Source: a virus (taxonomy: Duplodnaviria > Caudoviricetes). Taken from it: a stretch of DNA of 64,000 bases. The position numbers and the translations under genes are program-made. This document shows positions 3,256 through 61,851 of this stretch, piece by piece. The DNA lies in the IMG/VR virus record IMGVR_UViG_3300019365_000009, positions 2,229 through 66,228 of that record; one strand, written 5' to 3'. Below the pieces are notes generated by a model. The model worked only from the letters and a program-made list of their open reading frames with translations, ran no database searches and had not been told where the DNA came from. Numbering within the stretch: position 1 is the first letter of the stretch; each line of letters opens with the position of its first letter.

Positions 3256-4575
3256 TTAATAGTCTCGTTGACTTTCAAGTATGGGAATAGGGGGAATATT
3301 AATTGGGGTGTATTCAACTAACATTCTGATATATTTATCTTTATCATCTCTTTCCTCAAATTCTGCAATAGGCTGAGGAAGTGATAATCTATCTTGATAA
3401 TTATGATTGAGACGGTATCTGATGCGATTCCGAGGATGATATTTCTTTTTCAGTTTGACCACTTCCATGTGACCTTTGATATAAACCCACTTGAAAATAC
3501 GAGGCTCAATCTCCATAAGTCCATTATATCTGATGGCATAACTATCATAATGCCTTAATAATCCTAAGTAACTATTGACTGAGGATAAAGCCTTGATGAT
3601 TTGAGATTTGGTACGACACTGATTCAGTCTGTGAATACTATGCCGGAAGCTGGTGACTGTACGATTTAACGGATAGACTCTTCCCGGTTTAACTACGGCG
3701 CCGGTAAAGTCCAATCCTTTGGTATAATGTTGCATATAGAATTTCTTGGGAGATAGTTTTAATCCAAGAGATTCTAATTTGACCCTAATTTTCGGAATTG
3801 CGTTTAGAATTTGCTCTTTTGTATCGGCCACCAAATAAATGTCATCCACATATCTGCCGTGATATTTGATACCAAACTCCTTTTCAATCGCCCAATCCAA
3901 AGAGTTCAAAAGATAGTTGGCAAACATCTGAGATGGAAGATTCCCGATAGGCATACCCAATCCATTGCCATTTGTAAAGAGTGATTTGCTGGCTGGAAGA
4001 TTATTCCACATTGTTTCAGATGACTGTCTGATACAATTCTCTTCCGGGCAATGACTTAATACCACATGACATAGATAAATCAAATCGTCTTTATCCTCGC
4101 CGTGATACTTTTCTTCCACCAGTTTAACAACCATATCCTCAACCAGTTTCTTAGGGATAGACATAAAGAAACTATTGATGTCAACGGTGGCTACATAGCA
4201 ATCCTGAGTGTAATTATTTGAACACTCGATTATATCTTTCTTCAACTGATCGACACCGGCCAGAGTGCCTTTGCCATTTCTACAGTTGAAAGTGCGATCA
4301 TTAAATTCTTGTTCGATTATTGGCTCTAATCGGAGCCTGATGTAATGATGAATGATGCGGTCTGCAAAATCGGCCGCAAAAACCTCACGATATTTGGGGC
4401 GACTAACGACAAAGCAAATGGAACGTTTCGGACAGTAGGTTCTATTGTTGATGGCTTGCATCATATCATAGAGGTTGCCTTCTACATCAAGAGTAAACCT
4501 GATGCAGTTGTTTGTCCGCGACTTGTGTACGCGACAATCTAAATAGGCTTCTACTAATCCTTCATACGTTACCAT
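3256..4575 (-). CDS. DGR reverse transcriptase
   Basis: Motifs REVFAADFADRIIHH, DINSFFMSI, GMPIGNLPSQ, RYVDD; adjacent to TR and avd. Confidence 0.95.
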   Translation of the reverse strand: MVTYEGLVEAYLDCRVHKSRTNNCIRFTLDVEGNLYDMMQAINNRTYCPKRSICFVVSRPKYREVFAADFADRIIHHYIRLRLEPIIEQEFNDRTFNCRNGKGTLAGVDQLKKDIIECSNNYTQDCYVATVDINSFFMSIPKKLVEDMVVKLVEEKYHGEDKDDLIYLCHVVLSHCPEENCIRQSSETMWNNLPASKSLFTNGNGLGMPIGNLPSQMFANYLLNSLDWAIEKEFGIKYHGRYVDDIYLVADTKEQILNAIPKIRVKLESLGLKLSPKKFYMQHYTKGLDFTGAVVKPGRVYPLNRTVTSFRHSIHRLNQCRTKSQIIKALSSVNSYLGLLRHYDSYAIRYNGLMEIEPRIFKWVYIKGHMEVVKLKKKYHPRNRIRYRLNHNYQDRLSLPQPIAEFEERDDKDKYIRMLVEYTPINIPPIPILESQRDY

Positions 4576-4640: not shown

Positions 4641-4753
4641 TGAAATGCTGCCACAGCGCGGACGTAGTTGCTGTTCGTGACCTTAGTGTTCCAGTTGTTG
4701 AGGTTGCCGTCGTTCAGGTTCAAGTTCCAAGCGTTCGTCGCCGAGTTCTCAGT
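4641..4753 (-). ncRNA. DGR template repeat (TR), 113 nt, AAC-rich
   Basis: Aligns to VR1 (5525-5634) and VR2 (55173-55285) with all substitutions at TR adenines; lies between avd and RT. Confidence 0.97.
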
Positions 4754-4869: not shown

Positions 4870-5253
4870 TCAATCAGTCTCATCCGCAGAAGTGCGTTTG
4901 CGATACCTCTTTTTCGATGCGTTCTTCCATGCTGTCACTTGTTTGCCGATAGTCGCCTCCAAATACATGAGATTGGATTGTTGCTTCCGGCTTATCCAAC
5001 GATTATCGCCCGCAAGTCTAACTATCAGTTTGCAGTGTTCAAACTCACAGATGAAGTCGGTCAAATATGCTTCTCGCTCACTCTTGAACATATTTGCCTT
5101 AACAATGAATGTCGGCAATGAGATAGCAATTTTGATCCATTCTTGACCAACGGTGTGTTTTACATCCCTTGGAAAATTCTTTTGAGTGTCAATCACTGCT
5201 TGAATGTAGTGATAGGTTTCAACATAAACCGGCAATTCGTTAGATAAAGCCAT
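4870..5253 (-). CDS. avd: DGR accessory protein Avd (four-helix bundle)
   Basis: 127 aa, basic, helical; LPVY...FPRDVKHTVG pattern; directly upstream of TR-RT. Confidence 0.85.
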   Translation of the reverse strand: MALSNELPVYVETYHYIQAVIDTQKNFPRDVKHTVGQEWIKIAISLPTFIVKANMFKSEREAYLTDFICEFEHCKLIVRLAGDNRWISRKQQSNLMYLEATIGKQVTAWKNASKKRYRKRTSADETD

Positions 5254-5442
5254 TGCAACGGAGTATTAAGAAACACTGCTTTCATCATTTTTACAATAAC
5301 AAACTGATTGCCAGTAGATAATCAGTTTATCCGCATAACATTATAGAAACCCTATAAAGCACACATTGCTTACCTCAGAGTACTGGAACTAATCCTGAAC
5401 CTTCCAAAATGGCGACCGCTCCGAGGTAAGTTGAATGTGTGT

Positions 5443-5514
5443 ATCTCTTCAACCCTAATGCTCGTTGCGCTCGCTCGTCGCTAACGCTCCGAAGAGTTGA
5501 AGGGTTGAAGAGAT
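5443..5514 (-). promoter_or_regulatory. DGR hairpin/cruciform downstream of VR1
   Basis: Perfect 14-bp inverted repeat ATCTCTTCAACCCT (5443-5456) / AGGGTTGAAGAGAT (5501-5514) just 3' of the target stop codon. Confidence 0.75.
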
Positions 5515-5520
5515 AAAGGG

Positions 5521-6342
5521 TTAATGAAATGCTGCCACAGCGCGGACGTAGCGGCTGTTCGCGACCTTAGCGTTCCAGTAGAGGTAGCCGTCGTTCAGGT
5601 GCAAGAACCAAGCGTACGACGCCGAGTACTCAGTCGAGGACCAATGCCAGGACTCAACAAGCGGGCTGGCGCCCGAAATGACTGAGAGGCACAGATTGAT
5701 GGCGTATTTGTGCTTCCAGATGGTGATCAGCTCTGCGATAGAGGGGAGCCACCATTGGCCAGCACCGATACCGACTATTGCGCCATTCCCTTTGTCGTAG
5801 GAGCGATCGTAGGCGTTGCACCATGCAGGTGCAAACTGGGTCCAGGTCTCTTCCTCTTCACCGAAGAGTTCGACACCTTTGGCCATGATAGCGGCGGTGC
5901 GGGTCTTACCTGAGTAGTCAACATACGCTTTGTTGTAGTCGCCGCCGGTATCGGCATTGACTGCGATAGCGTTTTTCGACCATTTGAGCTGAGTGCCGGT
6001 GGGAGAAACGATGATTGGTGCCTGACCGTCAATGAGAACGAGAACACCATCAGCAACTTCGTCAGCGGCTTCGAGGGCAGCCCACTTCCAGTAGGGAACA
6101 GCGAGAGGCCAGTTATCGCTCTTACGGTGGTAGGTCACGAAACAGCCGTCAGTGGCTGCCTGAAGCTGCGGGTTAGCTTCCAGCTGATTGTTGGAAAGAG
6201 TGTCGACCTGATTCTGAAGAGCGACGTCCTTGTCATGCAGAGACTTGATCTGATCTTTCAAGAATTTCTGGACCTGAGCACCAGTTGCCTGGGCACCCTT
6301 TGCACCCCAGTCATCTTCCATTGTTAAAACTTTTTCTGCCAT
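5521..6342 (-). CDS. DGR target protein 1 (C-terminal CLec-like variable domain), probable receptor-binding/fibre tip
   Basis: WWLPSIAEL...WHWSSTEYS..AW motifs; C-terminal VR1; located among fibre genes. Confidence 0.9.
   Translation of the reverse strand: MAEKVLTMEDDWGAKGAQATGAQVQKFLKDQIKSLHDKDVALQNQVDTLSNNQLEANPQLQAATDGCFVTYHRKSDNWPLAVPYWKWAALEAADEVADGVLVLIDGQAPIIVSPTGTQLKWSKNAIAVNADTGGDYNKAYVDYSGKTRTAAIMAKGVELFGEEEETWTQFAPAWCNAYDRSYDKGNGAIVGIGAGQWWLPSIAELITIWKHKYAINLCLSVISGASPLVESWHWSSTEYSASYAWFLHLNDGYLYWNAKVANSRYVRAVAAFH
5525..5634 (-). repeat. DGR variable repeat VR1
   Basis: 12 substitutions versus TR, all at TR adenines, plus a one-codon deletion. Confidence 0.97.
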
Positions 6343-37055: not shown

Positions 37056-37679
37056 ATGAATACTGGGAGTAGAATATTGAGCAAGCTCACATATTGCAAA
37101 CTCTGCGGAAGTAAAATATGGATGCAGGGCTACAATATCCGAAGCCACATTACCCACATTATGAAAAAAAATAATGTGTGCTATGAATGTGCCTTCTGGG
37201 AAGAATTGATCGCTTATCCCCCGGAATATATGGAGGTGATCAATCAACAGTGTTTACGCCTACACCCAGTTGCTAATAAGAAGGACAAAACCTTAACCCT
37301 CGGAGGTAAGGGGAAAATGAGATATTTTATGCGTACTGATGGCTCTTTAATTCAATCCAATGATATATGGACTATCGGCACAATACCAGAACGCTTCATA
37401 TCCCAGTTACCGACAACGGCGGTAGAAATAACCTTAAAGGCATATCGCCAGTTGAAGAAAAGCAGTAAGAAATGTTATGCTCGTGGTTGTATGGACCGAT
37501 ACCATTGTTTCAGATATGATCGAGCATTGGAGAATGATGAAAAAGGATCATTCAATGCTATTCCACCTAAATGGAATGTTGGCGATGAGCATTGTGGTTT
37601 CTTCATCAATATCCAGGACATAAAAAGTGATGAGAGCAGTGTTATCAGTAAACCAAATTCCAATGAAGCAGAAAACTGA
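37056..37679 (+). CDS. hypothetical Cys-rich protein
   Basis: CKLCG, CYEC, CYARGC..C motifs. Confidence 0.65.
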   Translation: MNTGSRILSKLTYCKLCGSKIWMQGYNIRSHITHIMKKNNVCYECAFWEELIAYPPEYMEVINQQCLRLHPVANKKDKTLTLGGKGKMRYFMRTDGSLIQSNDIWTIGTIPERFISQLPTTAVEITLKAYRQLKKSSKKCYARGCMDRYHCFRYDRALENDEKGSFNAIPPKWNVGDEHCGFFINIQDIKSDESSVISKPNSNEAEN

Positions 37680-39765: not shown

Positions 39766-39831
39766 CAATCTGCAAATGAGGATATTACCTATCCCAACGT
39801 GATGAAAGCAGTGTTATGAATAGTTCATAAC

Positions 39832-40413: not shown

Positions 40414-40450
40414 GTGATGAAAGCAGTGTTCCTCAAAAATTGAAAAGATA

Positions 40451-46685: not shown

Positions 46686-46925
46686 ATGAAACAGACATCA
46701 ATCGAAATCCTCAATGCCATACTGACCATTCTTGTCGGTATTCTCTCGCTCATCATTCTTTTTTGCCGCAAGATGTGGCTGAAAGTGAGCCGAAATATCC
46801 TCAAACCTCATTTCGGCATTGAGACCAAGGCTTATCGGAAGTGGCACGATAAACGCTCTGCCCACATCCAGAAGCTGCTTGACAAAGAACACAAAGAGAA
46901 CCCCAACATAATTTCATTCGTATGA
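46686..46925 (+). CDS. small membrane protein
   Basis: One hydrophobic helix (ILNAILTILVGILSLIILF). Confidence 0.55.
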   Translation: MKQTSIEILNAILTILVGILSLIILFCRKMWLKVSRNILKPHFGIETKAYRKWHDKRSAHIQKLLDKEHKENPNIISFV

Positions 46926-47644
46926 CACCGAATATCACCAAAATAATTCAGACCATGAGTAATATCGTGGCTGATGTCATGACTTCCTTTCAGTCAGATT
47001 TTGAGAATTTCGATCGCCCATATATCGAGAATGCCTACAATTCTAAGTTTCCGATGATTTGGATTGTCGGAAAATCTTACACCTATCTCTTGCACTTGGG
47101 AGAATATGAGGAAAACTTTAGGGAAAATGAGGTGGCACGATATGCCTACGTTCAGGGTGGAAATCCATTTTTCTCTTTTCTCGACGCTCTTGGTGGCGAC
47201 CATCTTTTTCTGATTGAGCCGGATGGCGTTCGAGAAATCACTGAAAAGCAAGTGCGTGAAGTTTGCCGTGACATAGTGACTTCAGTTGCTGAGAAGTGGA
47301 TGAAAGAAAATGGTCCGCTTCCCACAAGAGTTCAAGTACCGGTCAAGTTCTTCAACATCACTCTATCAAAGGTCAAAGAACTGATCCGCGAATGTGAGGC
47401 GCACAACGACAATTCTCTCATTGAGATTTTCCGTCGCTTTCACAATTATCGCCGTGTTGCAATAGACCAATATATCCAGATTTCCTACAATCCCGGATAT
47501 AACGAGTTTACTTTCTGCGAGTACACCAACGGCAAGCAAGGTCTTGTTGGTGGTATCATCTTTCACGGATGGCCCGAAACAGGCTATATGGTTAACGGTT
47601 CCTATCAAATGGAGCCAACATACGGCTGGTCATCACACACTTAA
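46922..47644 (+). CDS. hypothetical protein
   Basis: ATGA overlap with the upstream gene. Confidence 0.7.
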   Translation: MTPNITKIIQTMSNIVADVMTSFQSDFENFDRPYIENAYNSKFPMIWIVGKSYTYLLHLGEYEENFRENEVARYAYVQGGNPFFSFLDALGGDHLFLIEPDGVREITEKQVREVCRDIVTSVAEKWMKENGPLPTRVQVPVKFFNITLSKVKELIRECEAHNDNSLIEIFRRFHNYRRVAIDQYIQISYNPGYNEFTFCEYTNGKQGLVGGIIFHGWPETGYMVNGSYQMEPTYGWSSHT

Positions 47645-54575: not shown

Positions 54576-55289
54576 ATGATCTCAGACGAAATCGTAAAAG
54601 CCATTTATGCTTCTCTTCCAGCAGACGAGAAGCTGAAACTCGCTCTCTACAGTGACTTCGGTGAAGAAGCGCCGACAGTGTATGACTTCATCAAATCTCC
54701 CGCTAAAGAAAGCGAGGAAGTCAATGTAACCGTCCAGCCTGTTCACATTCCCGGCGAAGTTCTCACTACTGATGGGGTGTATTATCTCTATGAGGATGAC
54801 ACCTCGGAAATGTTCGACTACAAAAAGCGTAACGCTCCGACAAAGGCTGTCAAGCGTATCGGCGTAGTAATGGGAAGTCATGCTCTCGCCGTCAATCTGG
54901 AGGATTACCCGGAACAGCCTCTCACCAGTCAGAAAGATACCACCGGCTACACCGGCTACATCTCAGAATATGTCGATGCAGTTGCTGACTGGAACGGCAA
55001 AGCCAACACTGAACACATCAAGTCTATCGGCACTGGCATAGAGCTGAAGGATGGCGAGTGGATTCCGTCAGTCGCCGAACTCTATCTCATTTATCTCAAT
55101 AAGCGGTCAATCGATGCCGCCATCGAACTTAGCGGCGGTAGCCGCATAAAAGATGGTTGGTACTGGACCAGCACTGAGTACTCGGCGACGTACGCTTGGC
55201 GCTTGACCCTGATCGACGGCAGCCTCGGCAGCTGGTACACTAAGGTCACGCACAGCTTCTACGTCCGCGCTGTGGCAGCATTTCATTAA
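54576..55289 (+). CDS. DGR target protein 2 (remote; CLec-like variable domain)
   Basis: WIPSVAEL...WYWTSTEYS..AW; C-terminal VR2 ending YVRAVAAFH exactly as in target 1. Confidence 0.92.
   Translation: MISDEIVKAIYASLPADEKLKLALYSDFGEEAPTVYDFIKSPAKESEEVNVTVQPVHIPGEVLTTDGVYYLYEDDTSEMFDYKKRNAPTKAVKRIGVVMGSHALAVNLEDYPEQPLTSQKDTTGYTGYISEYVDAVADWNGKANTEHIKSIGTGIELKDGEWIPSVAELYLIYLNKRSIDAAIELSGGSRIKDGWYWTSTEYSATYAWRLTLIDGSLGSWYTKVTHSFYVRAVAAFH
55173..55285 (+). repeat. DGR variable repeat VR2
   Basis: 113/113 nt colinear with TR; 14 substitutions, all at TR adenines. Confidence 0.97.
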
Positions 55290-55294
55290 CCCTT

Positions 55295-55363
55295 AACCCC
55301 TTTATCCCTTTAACCCTTGGAGCGAAGCGACCGCGAGCGAAGCGAGTTAGGGATAAAGGGGTT
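55295..55363 (+). promoter_or_regulatory. DGR hairpin/cruciform downstream of VR2
   Basis: Perfect 15-bp inverted repeat AACCCCTTTATCCCT / AGGGATAAAGGGGTT. Confidence 0.75.
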
Positions 55364-55914: not shown

Positions 55915-56319
55915 ATGGAATTTACCCCTTTTGAAACAGCAATCAAGAAATATCTTGACAAGCGCGCCGAAGAAGATCCTCAGTTCGCAGCATCATACAC
56001 TAAACCAAATAAAAGTATCGAAGAGTGCTGCAAGTACATCTTTCAAGAGGTTGAAAAGGGCAAAAAGAAAGGTGAACGCTGCGTAGGTGTTTCAGACGAT
56101 GAAGTCTTTGGTTTGGCAATTCACTACTATGATGAGGATGACATTGTAGTTGATGGCCCTAAGAACAAGGTGGCGGTTACACAAAGCGCATCGGTCAATG
56201 AAGAAACTTCGTCAGAAGAGACTGCTACCGAAGCTAAGCGTAAGACTCGCAAACCCAGAAAACCCAAAGCTGAGGTTGACCCCAACATCCCGGAGCCACT
56301 GGATATTCCGATTTTCTAA
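55915..56319 (+). CDS. PcfK-like protein
   Basis: IKKYLDKRAEEDPQF...KSIEECCKYI...SDDEVFGLAIHYYDEDDI. Confidence 0.85.
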   Translation: MEFTPFETAIKKYLDKRAEEDPQFAASYTKPNKSIEECCKYIFQEVEKGKKKGERCVGVSDDEVFGLAIHYYDEDDIVVDGPKNKVAVTQSASVNEETSSEETATEAKRKTRKPRKPKAEVDPNIPEPLDIPIF

Positions 56320-56337
56320 TCATCATTCCGACATCAA

Positions 56338-57633
56338 ATGAAACCAAGAAATAAACTTCAGAGAAAGATTTTGAAACTATCTCAGGGTCTTTCTCCGCTT
56401 ACCAAATACCAGTACAAGGAGGCTGTAAGAAAAGTTGGTCTGCATATTGCAAAATACAGCTCCAAACGAGGATATGAGTGTTTGGATTGCGGTCATACTT
56501 GGACTGGAGCTGAAGCAAAGCGAGTAGTTTGTCCTCATTGTGGTGCAAAACTTAATGTTGATGCTACACGAAAGAGAAATTTCTGTGAGAAAGACTATTT
56601 TGCAGTAGTTACAAAATGTCAGGGTTTCCAAGTTGTTCGGATGTTCTTTATGCAGACCAATTTAAGGAAAGGCAGCAAGCCTACTTATTGGATTTGCGAG
56701 GCATTTCAACGCTGGCTTACTCCAGATGGAAAGCTCACAATAGTTGGTCGGTCCCGACATTGGATTTCTTATTATTGTGATTGCTGGAATTGGGATAGTG
56801 ATATGGAAATAAGGAGTGAAGGTCCAGGACACATGGTAACACCTTGGAAAGTTGTCGGCCAATCATCTGTAATTCCTGAAATAAAACGAAATGGATATGC
56901 CGGAGATTTTCATCATTGTTCGCCATACACCCTTTTCAAAAGACTCCTTACCGATAACAAGACTGAAACGGCGTGGAAACTTGGTCAATATAATATGGTC
57001 GCTTATTCAATGGCTAAATCTTATGAGTTTGAGAAATATTGGCCATCCGCAAAAGTTGCTTTCCGTCACAAATACCATATTTCAAATGCCTCAATTTGGT
57101 ATGATTTGCTGGATGCTTTAGATTATTGTGGGAAGGATTTGAGAAATCCTAAATTCATCTGTCCCGACAATCTTAAAGAGGCTCATGATTTTTGGATTGC
57201 TAAAAAGCGAGCTAAGATAGATGAAGAGAATAGACGAAGAGAGCGTGAAAGACGGATGACACCAGAACAACGCTATCAAGCCAATAGCAAGCATGATGAG
57301 GCTCAATATAAGCAAGCCAAATCCAAATTCTTAAATTTGGAATTTGTCGATCAGGAAATTGTTGTTAAGCCTCTTCAATCTGTAAGGGAATTTTTGGATG
57401 AAGGTGAGTATATGCACCATTGCGTATTCACTAACAAATATTATTCCAAGAATAATGTGCTTATACTTCACGCTTTGGTTGAGGGCGTATCAATCGCAAC
57501 TATAGAGTTTTCATTAGAAAATTTCTCAATCGTACAATGTCGAGGAAAGTATAATAAAACCCCAATGAGTTATGAACGAATAACATCACTGGTCAATTCC
57601 AATATACCGAAAATAATTTCAAAAACCGCATAA
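56338..57633 (+). CDS. PcfJ-like protein
   Basis: DLLDALDYCGKDLRNPKFICPDNLKEAHD and PLQSVREFLDEGEYMHHCV; follows the PcfK-like gene. Confidence 0.85.
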   Translation: MKPRNKLQRKILKLSQGLSPLTKYQYKEAVRKVGLHIAKYSSKRGYECLDCGHTWTGAEAKRVVCPHCGAKLNVDATRKRNFCEKDYFAVVTKCQGFQVVRMFFMQTNLRKGSKPTYWICEAFQRWLTPDGKLTIVGRSRHWISYYCDCWNWDSDMEIRSEGPGHMVTPWKVVGQSSVIPEIKRNGYAGDFHHCSPYTLFKRLLTDNKTETAWKLGQYNMVAYSMAKSYEFEKYWPSAKVAFRHKYHISNASIWYDLLDALDYCGKDLRNPKFICPDNLKEAHDFWIAKKRAKIDEENRRRERERRMTPEQRYQANSKHDEAQYKQAKSKFLNLEFVDQEIVVKPLQSVREFLDEGEYMHHCVFTNKYYSKNNVLILHALVEGVSIATIEFSLENFSIVQCRGKYNKTPMSYERITSLVNSNIPKIISKTA

Positions 57634-57958: not shown

Positions 57959-58210
57959 ATGGAAGTATATAGCGTACAAGTTGAGTATGCAGGTGAACGA
58001 CCGGGCGAAGACTGGCATGGTCACACACTGTGGTCAACACTTGAAGGTGCAAGGCGTGGCCTGAAAAGCGAGCGTGATAGTATTCTTCATAAAAATACTT
58101 GGCTCAACAATGAAAACTGTATAGAAATTGATAAGGAGGATCATTTCTTGGCAGGCGATGACCAGGAGTCCTACGACATTACAATCAGCAAAGAAAAAGT
58201 CCATGAATGA
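57959..58210 (+). CDS. small hypothetical protein overlapping the RT start
   Basis: Last 8 nt overlap the RT ATG (58203). Confidence 0.6.
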   Translation: MEVYSVQVEYAGERPGEDWHGHTLWSTLEGARRGLKSERDSILHKNTWLNNENCIEIDKEDHFLAGDDQESYDITISKEKVHE

Positions 58211-59474
58211 CAAAATATTAGAGATGTTTTTCGACATCAAACGATGGACGTATGCCATTGATAAAGGTGTTGGAAAACATATCAACAAAGCTCATCTCTA
58301 CCAGCTCACCAAACCTGAGACCAGAGCAGCGATGTATGCCGCAATCAGGGATGGGAAATATGAAATAGCTCCACCTCATACGGCACAGATACCAAAGGAC
58401 AACGGAGATTTTCGCACAGTCTATATCAACGAGCCCGTTGACCGTGTATTCCTTAGCATTGCCAACGACCTCTTGTTTGAACTTATGCCTGAGATGATTC
58501 ATCCAGCTTGCCAGTCCTACCAAAAAGGGATAGGATGTGGTAAGATCGTGAAAGAAATATCTTGGAAAATATGCGAGACCAAGGGCGATGTCATTGGATG
58601 GAAATCTGATTTCAGCAAGTATTTCGATTCCGTTCCCATTCGGTTTATTGACGAAGCCTTTGATAAGGTGGAAGCCAAATACGGTCATTCAGCTATCATA
58701 GATGTGCTCCGTAAGTATTATCACTCCGACTGGTATTTTGATGCAGACGGCAATCTCCAGAAATCCTATCAATCACTCAAACAAGGCTGTTCGGTAGCCT
58801 CTTGGTTAGCCAATGTGGTTATGTTTAGTCTTGATGAACGATTGAGCAAGCTGGATGGCGAATATGTCCGCTATTCTGATGACGCTCTATTTGTCGGTCC
58901 TGATTATATGAGAGCAATGGAGATTATGTCTGAAGAAGTTGCTATGCGAGAAATGACACTCAATCCCAAAAAGATAGAGTATCTGACCCACACTCGATGG
59001 TTTAAGTTTCTTGGCTTTTCCATTATGGGCGCTTCCATCTCACTCAGCTCAACACGAATTAAGTCCTTTCAGAAAGAGATTGAGGCACGAACAATCCGTG
59101 CTAAGAATCTGAGCTTCAATAAAGCCATAAATCAGGTTAATAACTATCTTTATTTCGGGAATGGCGAATATAGCTGGGCCACCCAGGTTCTTCCGGTTAT
59201 CAATGTGCAAAAGGATGTTCAAATACTTTCCGTGTTTGTAGCGGATTGCTTGCGAGCAGTGATTACCGGCAAAACAAAAGTAGGCGGCCTGGGTTATGTG
59301 GCCAACAATCCTGATGGCTGTATTCAACGAGGTATTGGCCGAAACGTGAAAGCTAACCGTATCAAAACCGATAAGACGCTACCCGGCTACTACACTCTGG
59401 GATGTATGCAAAATGCACTCCGTACCAGTAAAGAGGTTTACAAGACCTTGGTAGCTAATCTTAATCGGAAATAA
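58203..59474 (+). CDS. reverse transcriptase of unassigned class (array-associated)
   Basis: RTVYINEPVDRVF, KSDFSKYFDSV, LKQGCSVASWLANV, YVRYSDD, LNPKK, FKFLGF; 423 aa from ATG 58203. Confidence 0.93.
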   Translation: MNDKILEMFFDIKRWTYAIDKGVGKHINKAHLYQLTKPETRAAMYAAIRDGKYEIAPPHTAQIPKDNGDFRTVYINEPVDRVFLSIANDLLFELMPEMIHPACQSYQKGIGCGKIVKEISWKICETKGDVIGWKSDFSKYFDSVPIRFIDEAFDKVEAKYGHSAIIDVLRKYYHSDWYFDADGNLQKSYQSLKQGCSVASWLANVVMFSLDERLSKLDGEYVRYSDDALFVGPDYMRAMEIMSEEVAMREMTLNPKKIEYLTHTRWFKFLGFSIMGASISLSSTRIKSFQKEIEARTIRAKNLSFNKAINQVNNYLYFGNGEYSWATQVLPVINVQKDVQILSVFVADCLRAVITGKTKVGGLGYVANNPDGCIQRGIGRNVKANRIKTDKTLPGYYTLGCMQNALRTSKEVYKTLVANLNRK

Positions 59475-60816: not shown

Positions 60817-61851
60817 ATGGCAAAATTTAACGTACAGTGCCCTAAGTGTGGCGCAAACATCAAGATCAATGCACCCGAAGTCGTAGCAGTAGTTGCTCCC
60901 ATCTCAGCAATCCCAGTAGTCGCTGCTTTCCCGGCCAAGAAACTCAATGCCGCAGAAGCCAAAATCGAAGCTCTCCGCAGTGCCGATGTCAACGTCGAAA
61001 ACCTCTTCTCTATTCGTAGCACAAACGGTGCTTACGAAGTCGGCCGCTTCTCTGAAGGTCAATTTTCAGTCGTTTCTGACAATGACCCTATCTTTGCCGC
61101 TATCAAGGCCAGTCGCACAATTCCTGACCGTCGCTTGTTCCGTCGTTGGATTATGGCTCAGGTCTTTCACATGCTGTCCGAAAAGGACTGTAAGACCGGC
61201 AATCCCATCGGTTTCACTGCTGCTCTTCGCCGCAAGGGTTACAAGTATCAGTGGAAAATGGTAGTTGAAGAACTCCGCGTTCAGGCTAAGCTCTTCAACG
61301 ATGACCCTGAGAACTATGCAGAGCGCAATCGCTGGTTCAACAGAAGCGTGGTTATCCAGATGGCTAACGACTACATCAAGCTCGTCAAGAACATCGTAGG
61401 CACTATCCGTATTCGCCACTGCAAAGGCGTTCCTTATGTTCGTCTTGACGGCACTGACATCTTTGTTGATGACCTTCAGACAAGGGTGTATGCTTCGCTT
61501 GAAAAGCTGGTGAAATCAATAAAGAATACCCGCAATCCCGGCGCACTTCATAAAGCCACCGTAAACTTCTATCAGGCTGTAAAAAACACCTATCTGTTCT
61601 TTGATATGGAACAGTCCAAGGCTTTCAAAGACGCTTATAAGGGTGCCGGCGCTTTCTTCACATTGAAGAACCTCATTCTCTTCCATGATTGTGTGTTCCC
61701 CAAAATGGATCAGGAGGCTTCAATCGCTTATCTCAACTATCTGGTAAATGACAAGGATTTTGAGGGCTACAAGCTCTTCGGAGTTCTGAAAGACTTTCTG
61801 ATCACCAATCATATCGACATCGAGGCCAAGCAGAGAGAATGGCAAAAATAA
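60817..61851 (+). CDS. hypothetical protein with an N-terminal CxxC motif
   Basis: 344 aa with strong codon bias; CPKCG then a helical basic body. Confidence 0.8.
   Translation: MAKFNVQCPKCGANIKINAPEVVAVVAPISAIPVVAAFPAKKLNAAEAKIEALRSADVNVENLFSIRSTNGAYEVGRFSEGQFSVVSDNDPIFAAIKASRTIPDRRLFRRWIMAQVFHMLSEKDCKTGNPIGFTAALRRKGYKYQWKMVVEELRVQAKLFNDDPENYAERNRWFNRSVVIQMANDYIKLVKNIVGTIRIRHCKGVPYVRLDGTDIFVDDLQTRVYASLEKLVKSIKNTRNPGALHKATVNFYQAVKNTYLFFDMEQSKAFKDAYKGAGAFFTLKNLILFHDCVFPKMDQEASIAYLNYLVNDKDFEGYKLFGVLKDFLITNHIDIEAKQREWQK

Follow-up and report, generated by a model that had tools for sequence, protein, structure and literature searches.

A phage diversity-generating retroelement with a probable second target 50 kb away, outside the virion genes

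The stretch of DNA analyzed here, hereafter the window, comprises 64,000 nucleotides (bases 2229-66228) of a 66,228-bp virus record, IMGVR_UViG_3300019365_000009, that is ~60% complete according to CheckV. A search for a terminal repeat in the record found none. The source names of proteins identical or nearly identical to those of the phage point to Muribaculaceae as hosts, and megablast of the locus and the cassette described below against cultured phages returned no match. The virion genes form a minus-strand block that extends from ~34 kb down to 5.5 kb and contains portal, protease, capsid-like, two sheath-like, baseplate-hub, and fiber-like genes. The block terminates in a classical cassette of a diversity-generating retroelement (DGR). 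Far from it, on the plus strand, lies the gene that is the subject of this study, target 2. The features that we describe are the following, in window coordinates.

3256-4575, minus strand: DGR reverse transcriptase (RT), 439 aa
4641-4753, minus strand: template repeat (TR), between avd and the RT gene
4870-5253, minus strand: accessory variability determinant (bAvd)
5442-5515, minus strand: hairpin 3' of VR1
5521-6342, minus strand: target 1, 273 aa, Lcl_C/DUF1566, at the end of the tail module
5525-5634, minus strand: VR1, in target 1
54576-55289, plus strand: target 2, 237 aa, from the list of open reading frames and its translation
55173-55285, plus strand: VR2, codons 200-237 of target 2
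55263-55294, plus strand: IMH-like 3' end of VR2
55295-55363, plus strand: hairpin 3' of VR2
55915-56319, plus strand: PcfK-like protein
56338-57633, plus strand: PcfJ-like protein

The RT of the cassette matches Pfam RVT_1 (E 3e-19) and carries the motifs IGNLPSQ and YVDD; the combination of [I/L/V]GxxxSQ and YxDD is the signature of DGR-type RTs. It is 46-56% identical, over most of its length, to the RTs of nine other viral loci (L024-L033), in which the RT gene likewise lies beside an Avd homolog and a target-1-type gene. The accessory variability determinant was identified by its match to Pfam bAvd (E 7e-14; 52.7 bits against a cut-off of 40). Target 1 belongs to the Lcl_C/DUF1566 family (PF07603, E 8e-10, 39.5 bits), and its repeat, VR1, differs from the TR at 12 positions, all 12 of them template adenines, and by a 3-nt deletion that removes one codon of an AAC-AAC run.

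An ungapped scan of the window with 55173-55285 gave a single strong match, to 4641-4753 on the opposite strand (99 of 113 positions identical), and no additional TR- or VR-like copy. When VR2 is aligned to the reverse complement of 4641-4753, no gaps are required and every one of the 14 mismatches falls on a template adenine, with none at the remaining positions (A>T in six cases, A>G in five, and A>C in three). The chance that all 14 would fall on the 35 adenines among the 113 positions is P = 8.5e-9. The first base of VR2 is the start of codon 200 in the open reading frame 54576-55289, and in that frame the TR contains 11 AAC codons. These results bear out the initial annotation of this DNA, which had described VR2 as equal to the TR at every non-adenine position over 113 nt, with 14 A-to-N changes, and had placed target 2 on the strand opposite to the TR and ~50 kb from it; the separation is 50.4 kb. 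The distance is not an artifact, because a 99%-complete, 109-kb relative (L002) has its DGR RT and its target-2 homolog 49 kb apart. We also considered a circular map, on which the 50 kb would shrink to ~16 kb, and rejected it: the record has no terminal repeat and is well short of complete, and the 109-kb relative keeps its 49 kb.

The ends of the two variable repeats resemble each other and differ from the end of the TR. Homology between TR and VRs stops at ...GCATTTCA; in the alignments, VR1 and VR2 both continue with TTAACCCTT and the TR with ACAAATCGC. The IMH-like 3' end of VR2 consists of an unmutated GC-rich stretch common to the TR, followed by TTAACCCTT, which is common to VR1 and absent from the TR. 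Immediately downstream, VR2 has a hairpin with a 15-bp stem and a GC-rich core containing two GCGAAGC units (DNA fold -17.1 kcal/mol, z -3.4 against shuffled sequences). VR1 also has a hairpin with a 15-bp stem (-19.3 kcal/mol, z -5.2 against shuffles). The two stems differ in sequence and each is fully paired, and the VR2 hairpin is kept in the relatives L001 and L002. The earlier proposal that VR2 possesses its own IMH end and hairpin was thus correct. We infer that the IMH-like end and the hairpins serve in homing. A scan for promoters and terminators gave matches at background level. GCGAAGC is a very stable DNA mini-hairpin sequence; its two copies lie in the loop of the VR2 hairpin (55328-55345), and L001 has GCGTAGC at the matching places.

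If VR2 receives copies of the TR, natural populations should vary at the codons that contain template adenines, and this is what we observed. The 90%-identity cluster that contains target 2 holds 363 distinct sequences. In an alignment of 15 cluster members, three of the first 199 columns vary. In VR2, by contrast, all 11 AAC codons carry 5-8 different residues, and the single-A codons show no residues beyond those that A-to-N changes allow. Among the non-A codons in the range 200-236, 15 of 17 are invariant. There are two exceptions. Codon 224 is V or A and varies at a non-A position, probably because the TR is polymorphic there from strain to strain; codon 236 varies in a single outlier, a sequence with an altered C-terminus. 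The changes in VR2 outside TR-A codons are accordingly confined, in these 15 members, to codon 224 and the last residues of two outliers. Invariance of VR2 across populations, which the initial annotation had named as a finding that would count against it, is not what the cluster shows. Variation across metagenomes shows that the lineage diversifies VR2; it says nothing of when or how often. Target 1 varies likewise, with 138 cluster members of 273 and 274 aa. The exact RT of the window is present on 984 contigs, the exact target-1 allele on 32, and the exact target-2 allele on 3, and, by these raw contig counts, the diversification of target 2 would seem no smaller than that of target 1.

Both variable repeats also differ in length by one codon among cluster members, at the TR's AAC-AAC run: target 1 occurs as 273 or 274 aa and target 2 as 236, 237, or 238 aa, and in the 109-kb relative an AAC-AAC codon is missing from the distal VR. 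The polymorphism suggests slippage on CAACAAC during cDNA synthesis.

The features by which a DGR is recognized are present: a DGR-type RT, TR/VR pairs that differ at A only, and Avd beside the TR and RT, together with a 3' VR in a C-type-lectin fold, target-site signals, and diversification of VR2 at the population level. We conclude that VR2 very probably functions as a second, non-adjacent target of the one DGR that the phage carries. The A-specific relation between TR and VR2, the intact RT, Avd, and TR, the target-site features, and the hypervariation of VR2 support this idea, and the retrohoming steps can be sketched by analogy with Bordetella phage BPP-1. In such a scheme, the avd-TR-RT cassette at 3.2-5.3 kb would give rise to TR RNA, which the DGR RT and Avd would copy into cDNA, misreading adenines. 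This cDNA would take the place of VR1, next to the cassette, and would act in trans on VR2, which lies 50 kb off on the opposite strand, the VRs each being marked by the common IMH-like end and a downstream hairpin of their own. In target 2, the changes would fall within the last 38 codons of the 237-aa protein, on the 11 AAC codons and a few further adenines, and the outcome would be a varied putative ligand-binding face on a predicted DUF1566 C-type-lectin domain. The earlier suggestion that target 2 is diversified in trans by the cassette at 3-5 kb is strongly supported by the confinement of variation to A-containing VR2 codons and by the remote, A-mismatched layout found in other phages (see below).

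Two other accounts of VR2 were weighed and both appear very improbable. VR2 could be an inactive relic, the fossil of a former target that no longer receives cDNA. Such look-alikes exist: in the clade described below whose lectin domain is fused to DUF3310, a VR-like end and hairpin persist in a complete genome without a DGR RT, and 4 contigs carry one and the same VR sequence. The lineage of the window, however, has hundreds of alleles that differ only at TR-adenine codons while the rest of the protein is invariant, and the frame, the IMH-like end, and the hairpin of VR2 are all intact in the window. It is similarly hard to credit that gene conversion from VR1, or a second RT that is encoded nearby, and not TR-templated retrohoming, is the source of the variation in VR2. 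VR1 and VR2 do have common flanks, and a second RT gene does lie 3 kb downstream of VR2. Conversion would homogenize the two repeats, yet both differ from the TR at A only and from each other at many such sites. The second RT is of class UG27 (E 5e-230) and has the motif QGCSVAS, the window contains no additional TR/VR-like copy that it might use, and L002 has the target without this RT within 6 kb.

We next consider the product of the gene. Target 2 matches Pfam Lcl_C (PF07603) with E 8e-5 and 23.3 bits, under the curated cut-off of 34.9, and many of its close homologs have a precomputed PF07603 match. Its assignment to the DUF1566/Lcl_C family is supported by structure matches to 8q4e and 4eps. 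In the AF2 model (mean pLDDT 74.7), two N-terminal helices (4-40) are followed by a disordered linker (43-61) and a globular domain (~62-237). With VIA-align, the best match of residues 54-236 was the Bacteroides ovatus pilus-tip DGR target BACOVA_04982 (4EPS, 4eps_A; Z 13.4, rmsd 2.9 A over 177 residues). The globular domain also matched the C-terminal domain of Legionella Lcl (8Q4E, Z 8.3) and, weakly, Mtd (1YU0, Z 3.9) and TvpA (2Y3C, Z 3.7); Foldseek against the PDB gave a weak Lcl match alone. An alignment of the target-2 family is conserved from residue 66 to the end, with 34 invariant columns. The modeled layout, the structure matches, and this conservation indicate that target 2 is predicted to be a near-bare DUF1566 lectin domain with a short helical leader, not a two-domain protein. 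The initial annotation had described a C-terminal domain like that of target 1 joined to an unrelated N-terminus. Indeed, the two proteins are 45% identical over the last 101 residues and show no similarity upstream; what had been missed is that the N-terminus has only ~40 structured residues and that the lectin domain spans residues 60-237. The N-terminus is acidic and hydrophilic and the protein is, by inspection, free of cysteine, and so target 2 appears to lack a signal or lipoprotein signal. The absence of a signal peptide had been noted before, and the observation is true by inspection; it does not discriminate between roles, since target 1 and phage fibers in general also lack one. A search of the ESM Atlas with residues 1-62 found nothing. 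The idea that the N-terminal hairpin is a remnant of DUF3310 was rejected, as hhalign gave a probability of 7% and aligned the DGVY motif alone. In PHROGs, the sole match of target 2 was a family of unknown function, without tail annotation.

As anticipated, pcfK and pcfJ lie downstream of target 2, and Pfam confirmed both (PcfK-like, E 2e-28; PcfJ-like, E 2e-35). They are syntenic with target 2 in L001 and L002. Searches of the neighboring genes with PHROGs, Pfam, and PADLOC mostly returned no match, and the block is largely unannotated apart from an integrase fragment, a weak DnaD-like match, DUF4120, PcfK/PcfJ, and the UG27 RT. The initial annotation placed target 2 among early genes. The non-structural context is supported, but an early character of the block is not demonstrated: most of its genes lack annotation, and in the 109-kb relative the DnaB-like helicase is encoded elsewhere, beyond the cassette. 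Searches for DNA_pol_A and Terminase_6N in records G000 and G001 found neither, and of these two records only G001 gave a DnaB match, far from the target. Two further observations concern this region. A protein with DUF4120 (E 4e-7, above cut-off) is encoded at 46922-47644, and DUF4120, PcfK, and PcfJ together have what we take to be the look of an accessory region of a Bacteroidales conjugative element. The UG27 system, 3-6 kb downstream of VR2, consists of the non-DGR RT at 58203-59474 (PADLOC RT_UG27) and the RT-associated protein RTas337 at 60817-61851 (E 4e-134).

A scan of viral contigs identified 33 loci. The order target 2 - (ORF) - PcfK - PcfJ - 104-aa gene is kept in L001 and L002, whose target-2 homologs are 78% and 62% identical to that of the window; the DGR RT of the 109-kb L002 record is 81% identical to the window RT. 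Full-length homologs with 32-46% identity were found at ~20 additional loci, without a cassette within 6 kb, in a different kind of phage. There, the homolog is part of the replication module: upstream of it are genes for an exonuclease, a Gp2.5-like SSB, and DNA polymerase A, the last separated from it by one or two small ORFs, and downstream are those for a clamp-like protein, a methyltransferase, and a primase-helicase. In 4 of these records, a DGR RT is encoded elsewhere in the record, with its TR outside the ±6 kb target flank and >10 kb away by contig coordinates; relative to this TR, the VR of the homolog has 7-21 mismatches at A and 0-1 at other positions. Bacuni F1, F2, and F4, which are cultured Bacteroides phages, fall within this DNA-polymerase-A-linked group. 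By tblastn, their distal target is 38-40% identical to target 2 over residues 19-236 (92% of its length). In Bacuni F1 it is gene 26, one small ORF after DNA polymerase A, and in our own comparison its VR has 18 A-only mismatches to a TR 12.7 kb away. On sequence grounds, then, we assign target 2 to the family of Bacuni-type distal DGR targets.

Other members of the family depart from this arrangement. At L022:122-3951, a whole cassette, with a target-2-like gene adjacent to Avd, the TR region, and the RT, lies just 3' of a DNA-polymerase-A fragment, that is, in the replication module and not in the tail module. Proteins of the clade L008-L011 (e.g. L009:5767-6579) have a DUF3310 domain (36.6 bits, cut-off 24) fused to the lectin domain on its N-terminal side, and the fusion gene directly follows DNA polymerase A and keeps a VR-like end and a GC hairpin. 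A DGR RT was sought in the complete 37.5-kb genome of this clade and was not found; the fused gene is an orphan or fossil target. The proviruses L004 (G002) and L007 (G003), which are 94-100% complete, have a target-2 homolog and a hairpin, and a DGR RT was not found in either record. These proviruses have lost their cassette recently, or else another source in the host provides the RT. The VR of L007 is unlike those of L003, L006, and L016, to which L007 is closely related.

A layout with one adjacent and one distant target is already published. Wu et al. 2018 (NAR 46:11, PMC5758913) reported that many phage-associated DGRs have one target of each kind and that the non-adjacent one is nearly always within 50 kb in the same prophage. 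That survey did not analyze the identity and placement of the non-adjacent targets, and the window lies at the far end of its 50-kb range. Remote targets could not be detected in the survey of Roux et al. 2021, and large surveys that are restricted to the neighborhood of the RT miss them. Both DGR targets of Bacuni F1, F2, and F4 were described by Hedzet, Rupnik & Accetto 2021 (PMC8143477; MT635598), who read them as adhesins. Like the window, the Bacuni phages have one cassette (target-Avd-TR-RT) and a second DUF1566-type target elsewhere in the genome, with both VRs encoding the last 35-38 residues. The phages themselves are unrelated, Bacuni being a 40-kb siphovirus and the window deriving from a ~110-kb myovirus. 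The TR and the distal target are 12.7 kb apart on the same strand in Bacuni and 50 kb apart on opposite strands here, and the Bacuni target follows DNA polymerase A whereas target 2 is beside PcfK/PcfJ. What goes beyond the published layout is that the target-2 family lies in non-structural blocks of two unrelated phage lineages and that one clade fuses it to DUF3310. The interest that remains lies in this conserved non-structural placement and in the function of the family.

The DGR of BPP-1 (Mtd) resembles that of the window in its Avd, TR, RT, and adenine mutagenesis, as well as in the 3'-terminal VR of its C-type-lectin target, with an IMH-type end and a hairpin downstream. By contrast, BPP-1 has a single adjacent target, the tail-fiber tip, and Mtd matches the target 2 model only weakly, as noted above; its hairpin is an 8-bp GC stem, whereas the window hairpin is long and AT-stemmed. 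BACOVA_04982 is a cellular DGR target, a 497-residue secreted fimbrial protein of a bacterium, and target 2 is a 237-aa phage protein that has no signal sequence by inspection. DGRs are also reported to diversify intracellular bacterial proteins, namely cyanobacterial regulators (PMC7517822) and putative antigen sensors (PMC10907252). These offer a precedent for lectin domains that work inside cells, although the proteins are cellular and multidomain, with signaling or effector domains, unlike target 2.

What target 2 does is a separate matter from whether it is diversified; its partner is presumably a variable ligand. Phage DGRs are usually explained as host-receptor-switching devices. Target 2 might, with appreciable probability, be a second virion-borne adhesin or receptor-binding accessory, docked by its N-terminal helices and diversified so as to widen or tune binding to the host or to mucus; its coding site away from the tail module would then be due to chance. 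The fold of its domain is that of a Bacteroides pilus-tip adhesin and of Lcl, and it has both its 45% identity and the TR itself in common with the target of the fiber module. Published authors have taken both Bacuni targets as adhesins (PMC8143477), and in other work small lectin-type DGR targets flanked by short helices have been interpreted as RBPs (PMC10743442). Against this, the gene lies outside the structural module in every lineage examined, beside PcfK/PcfJ here and after DNA polymerase A in the Bacuni-like phages, and target 2 has no PHROG tail annotation. The other candidate role is that of a putative non-virion, intracellular binder, as the initial annotation had proposed, a reading that we rate somewhat below even odds and about level with the adhesin, and to which we lean slightly because the family sits in non-structural blocks in two unrelated lineages. 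In one of these lineages the gene belongs to the string that includes DNA polymerase A, which makes a non-virion role plausible. The fusion of one clade to DUF3310 is compatible with such a role and speaks against an adhesin, since proteins with this domain, such as lactococcal SaV and cytotoxic proteins of mycobacteriophages, are early and non-structural. The published Bacuni genomes (PMC8143477) point the same way: F1 and F2 have the same host and differ by 15 SNPs in the distal VR, a change without a change of host that is compatible with a non-virion binder, whereas F1 and F4, whose hosts differ, are set apart by 18 SNPs in the RT-adjacent VR. Slightly more doubtful is the narrower proposal that the family consists of early or accessory putative non-virion binders that would track a variable protein of the host or of a rival phage, for example a defense component or a replication cofactor.

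Two unrelated lineages encode the family away from their virion genes, and one may ask whether an intracellular binder is also among the proteins that phages hypermutate. If so, it would be the first demonstration that a phage DGR acts on a protein other than a virion adhesin. Bacuni F1 is a cultured model with a member of the target-2 family, and the question is directly testable there.

A minor observation concerns the leader of the cassette. The 16-mer TGATGAAAGCAGTGTT was sought upstream of target 2 and was not found there. It precedes avd and three plus-block genes by 16-20 nt, at 5272-5287 (minus strand), 37628-37643, 39800-39815, and 40415-40430, and it has 6 matches at ≤3 mismatches where 1 is expected. 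The DGR cassette may be co-regulated with these plus-block genes.
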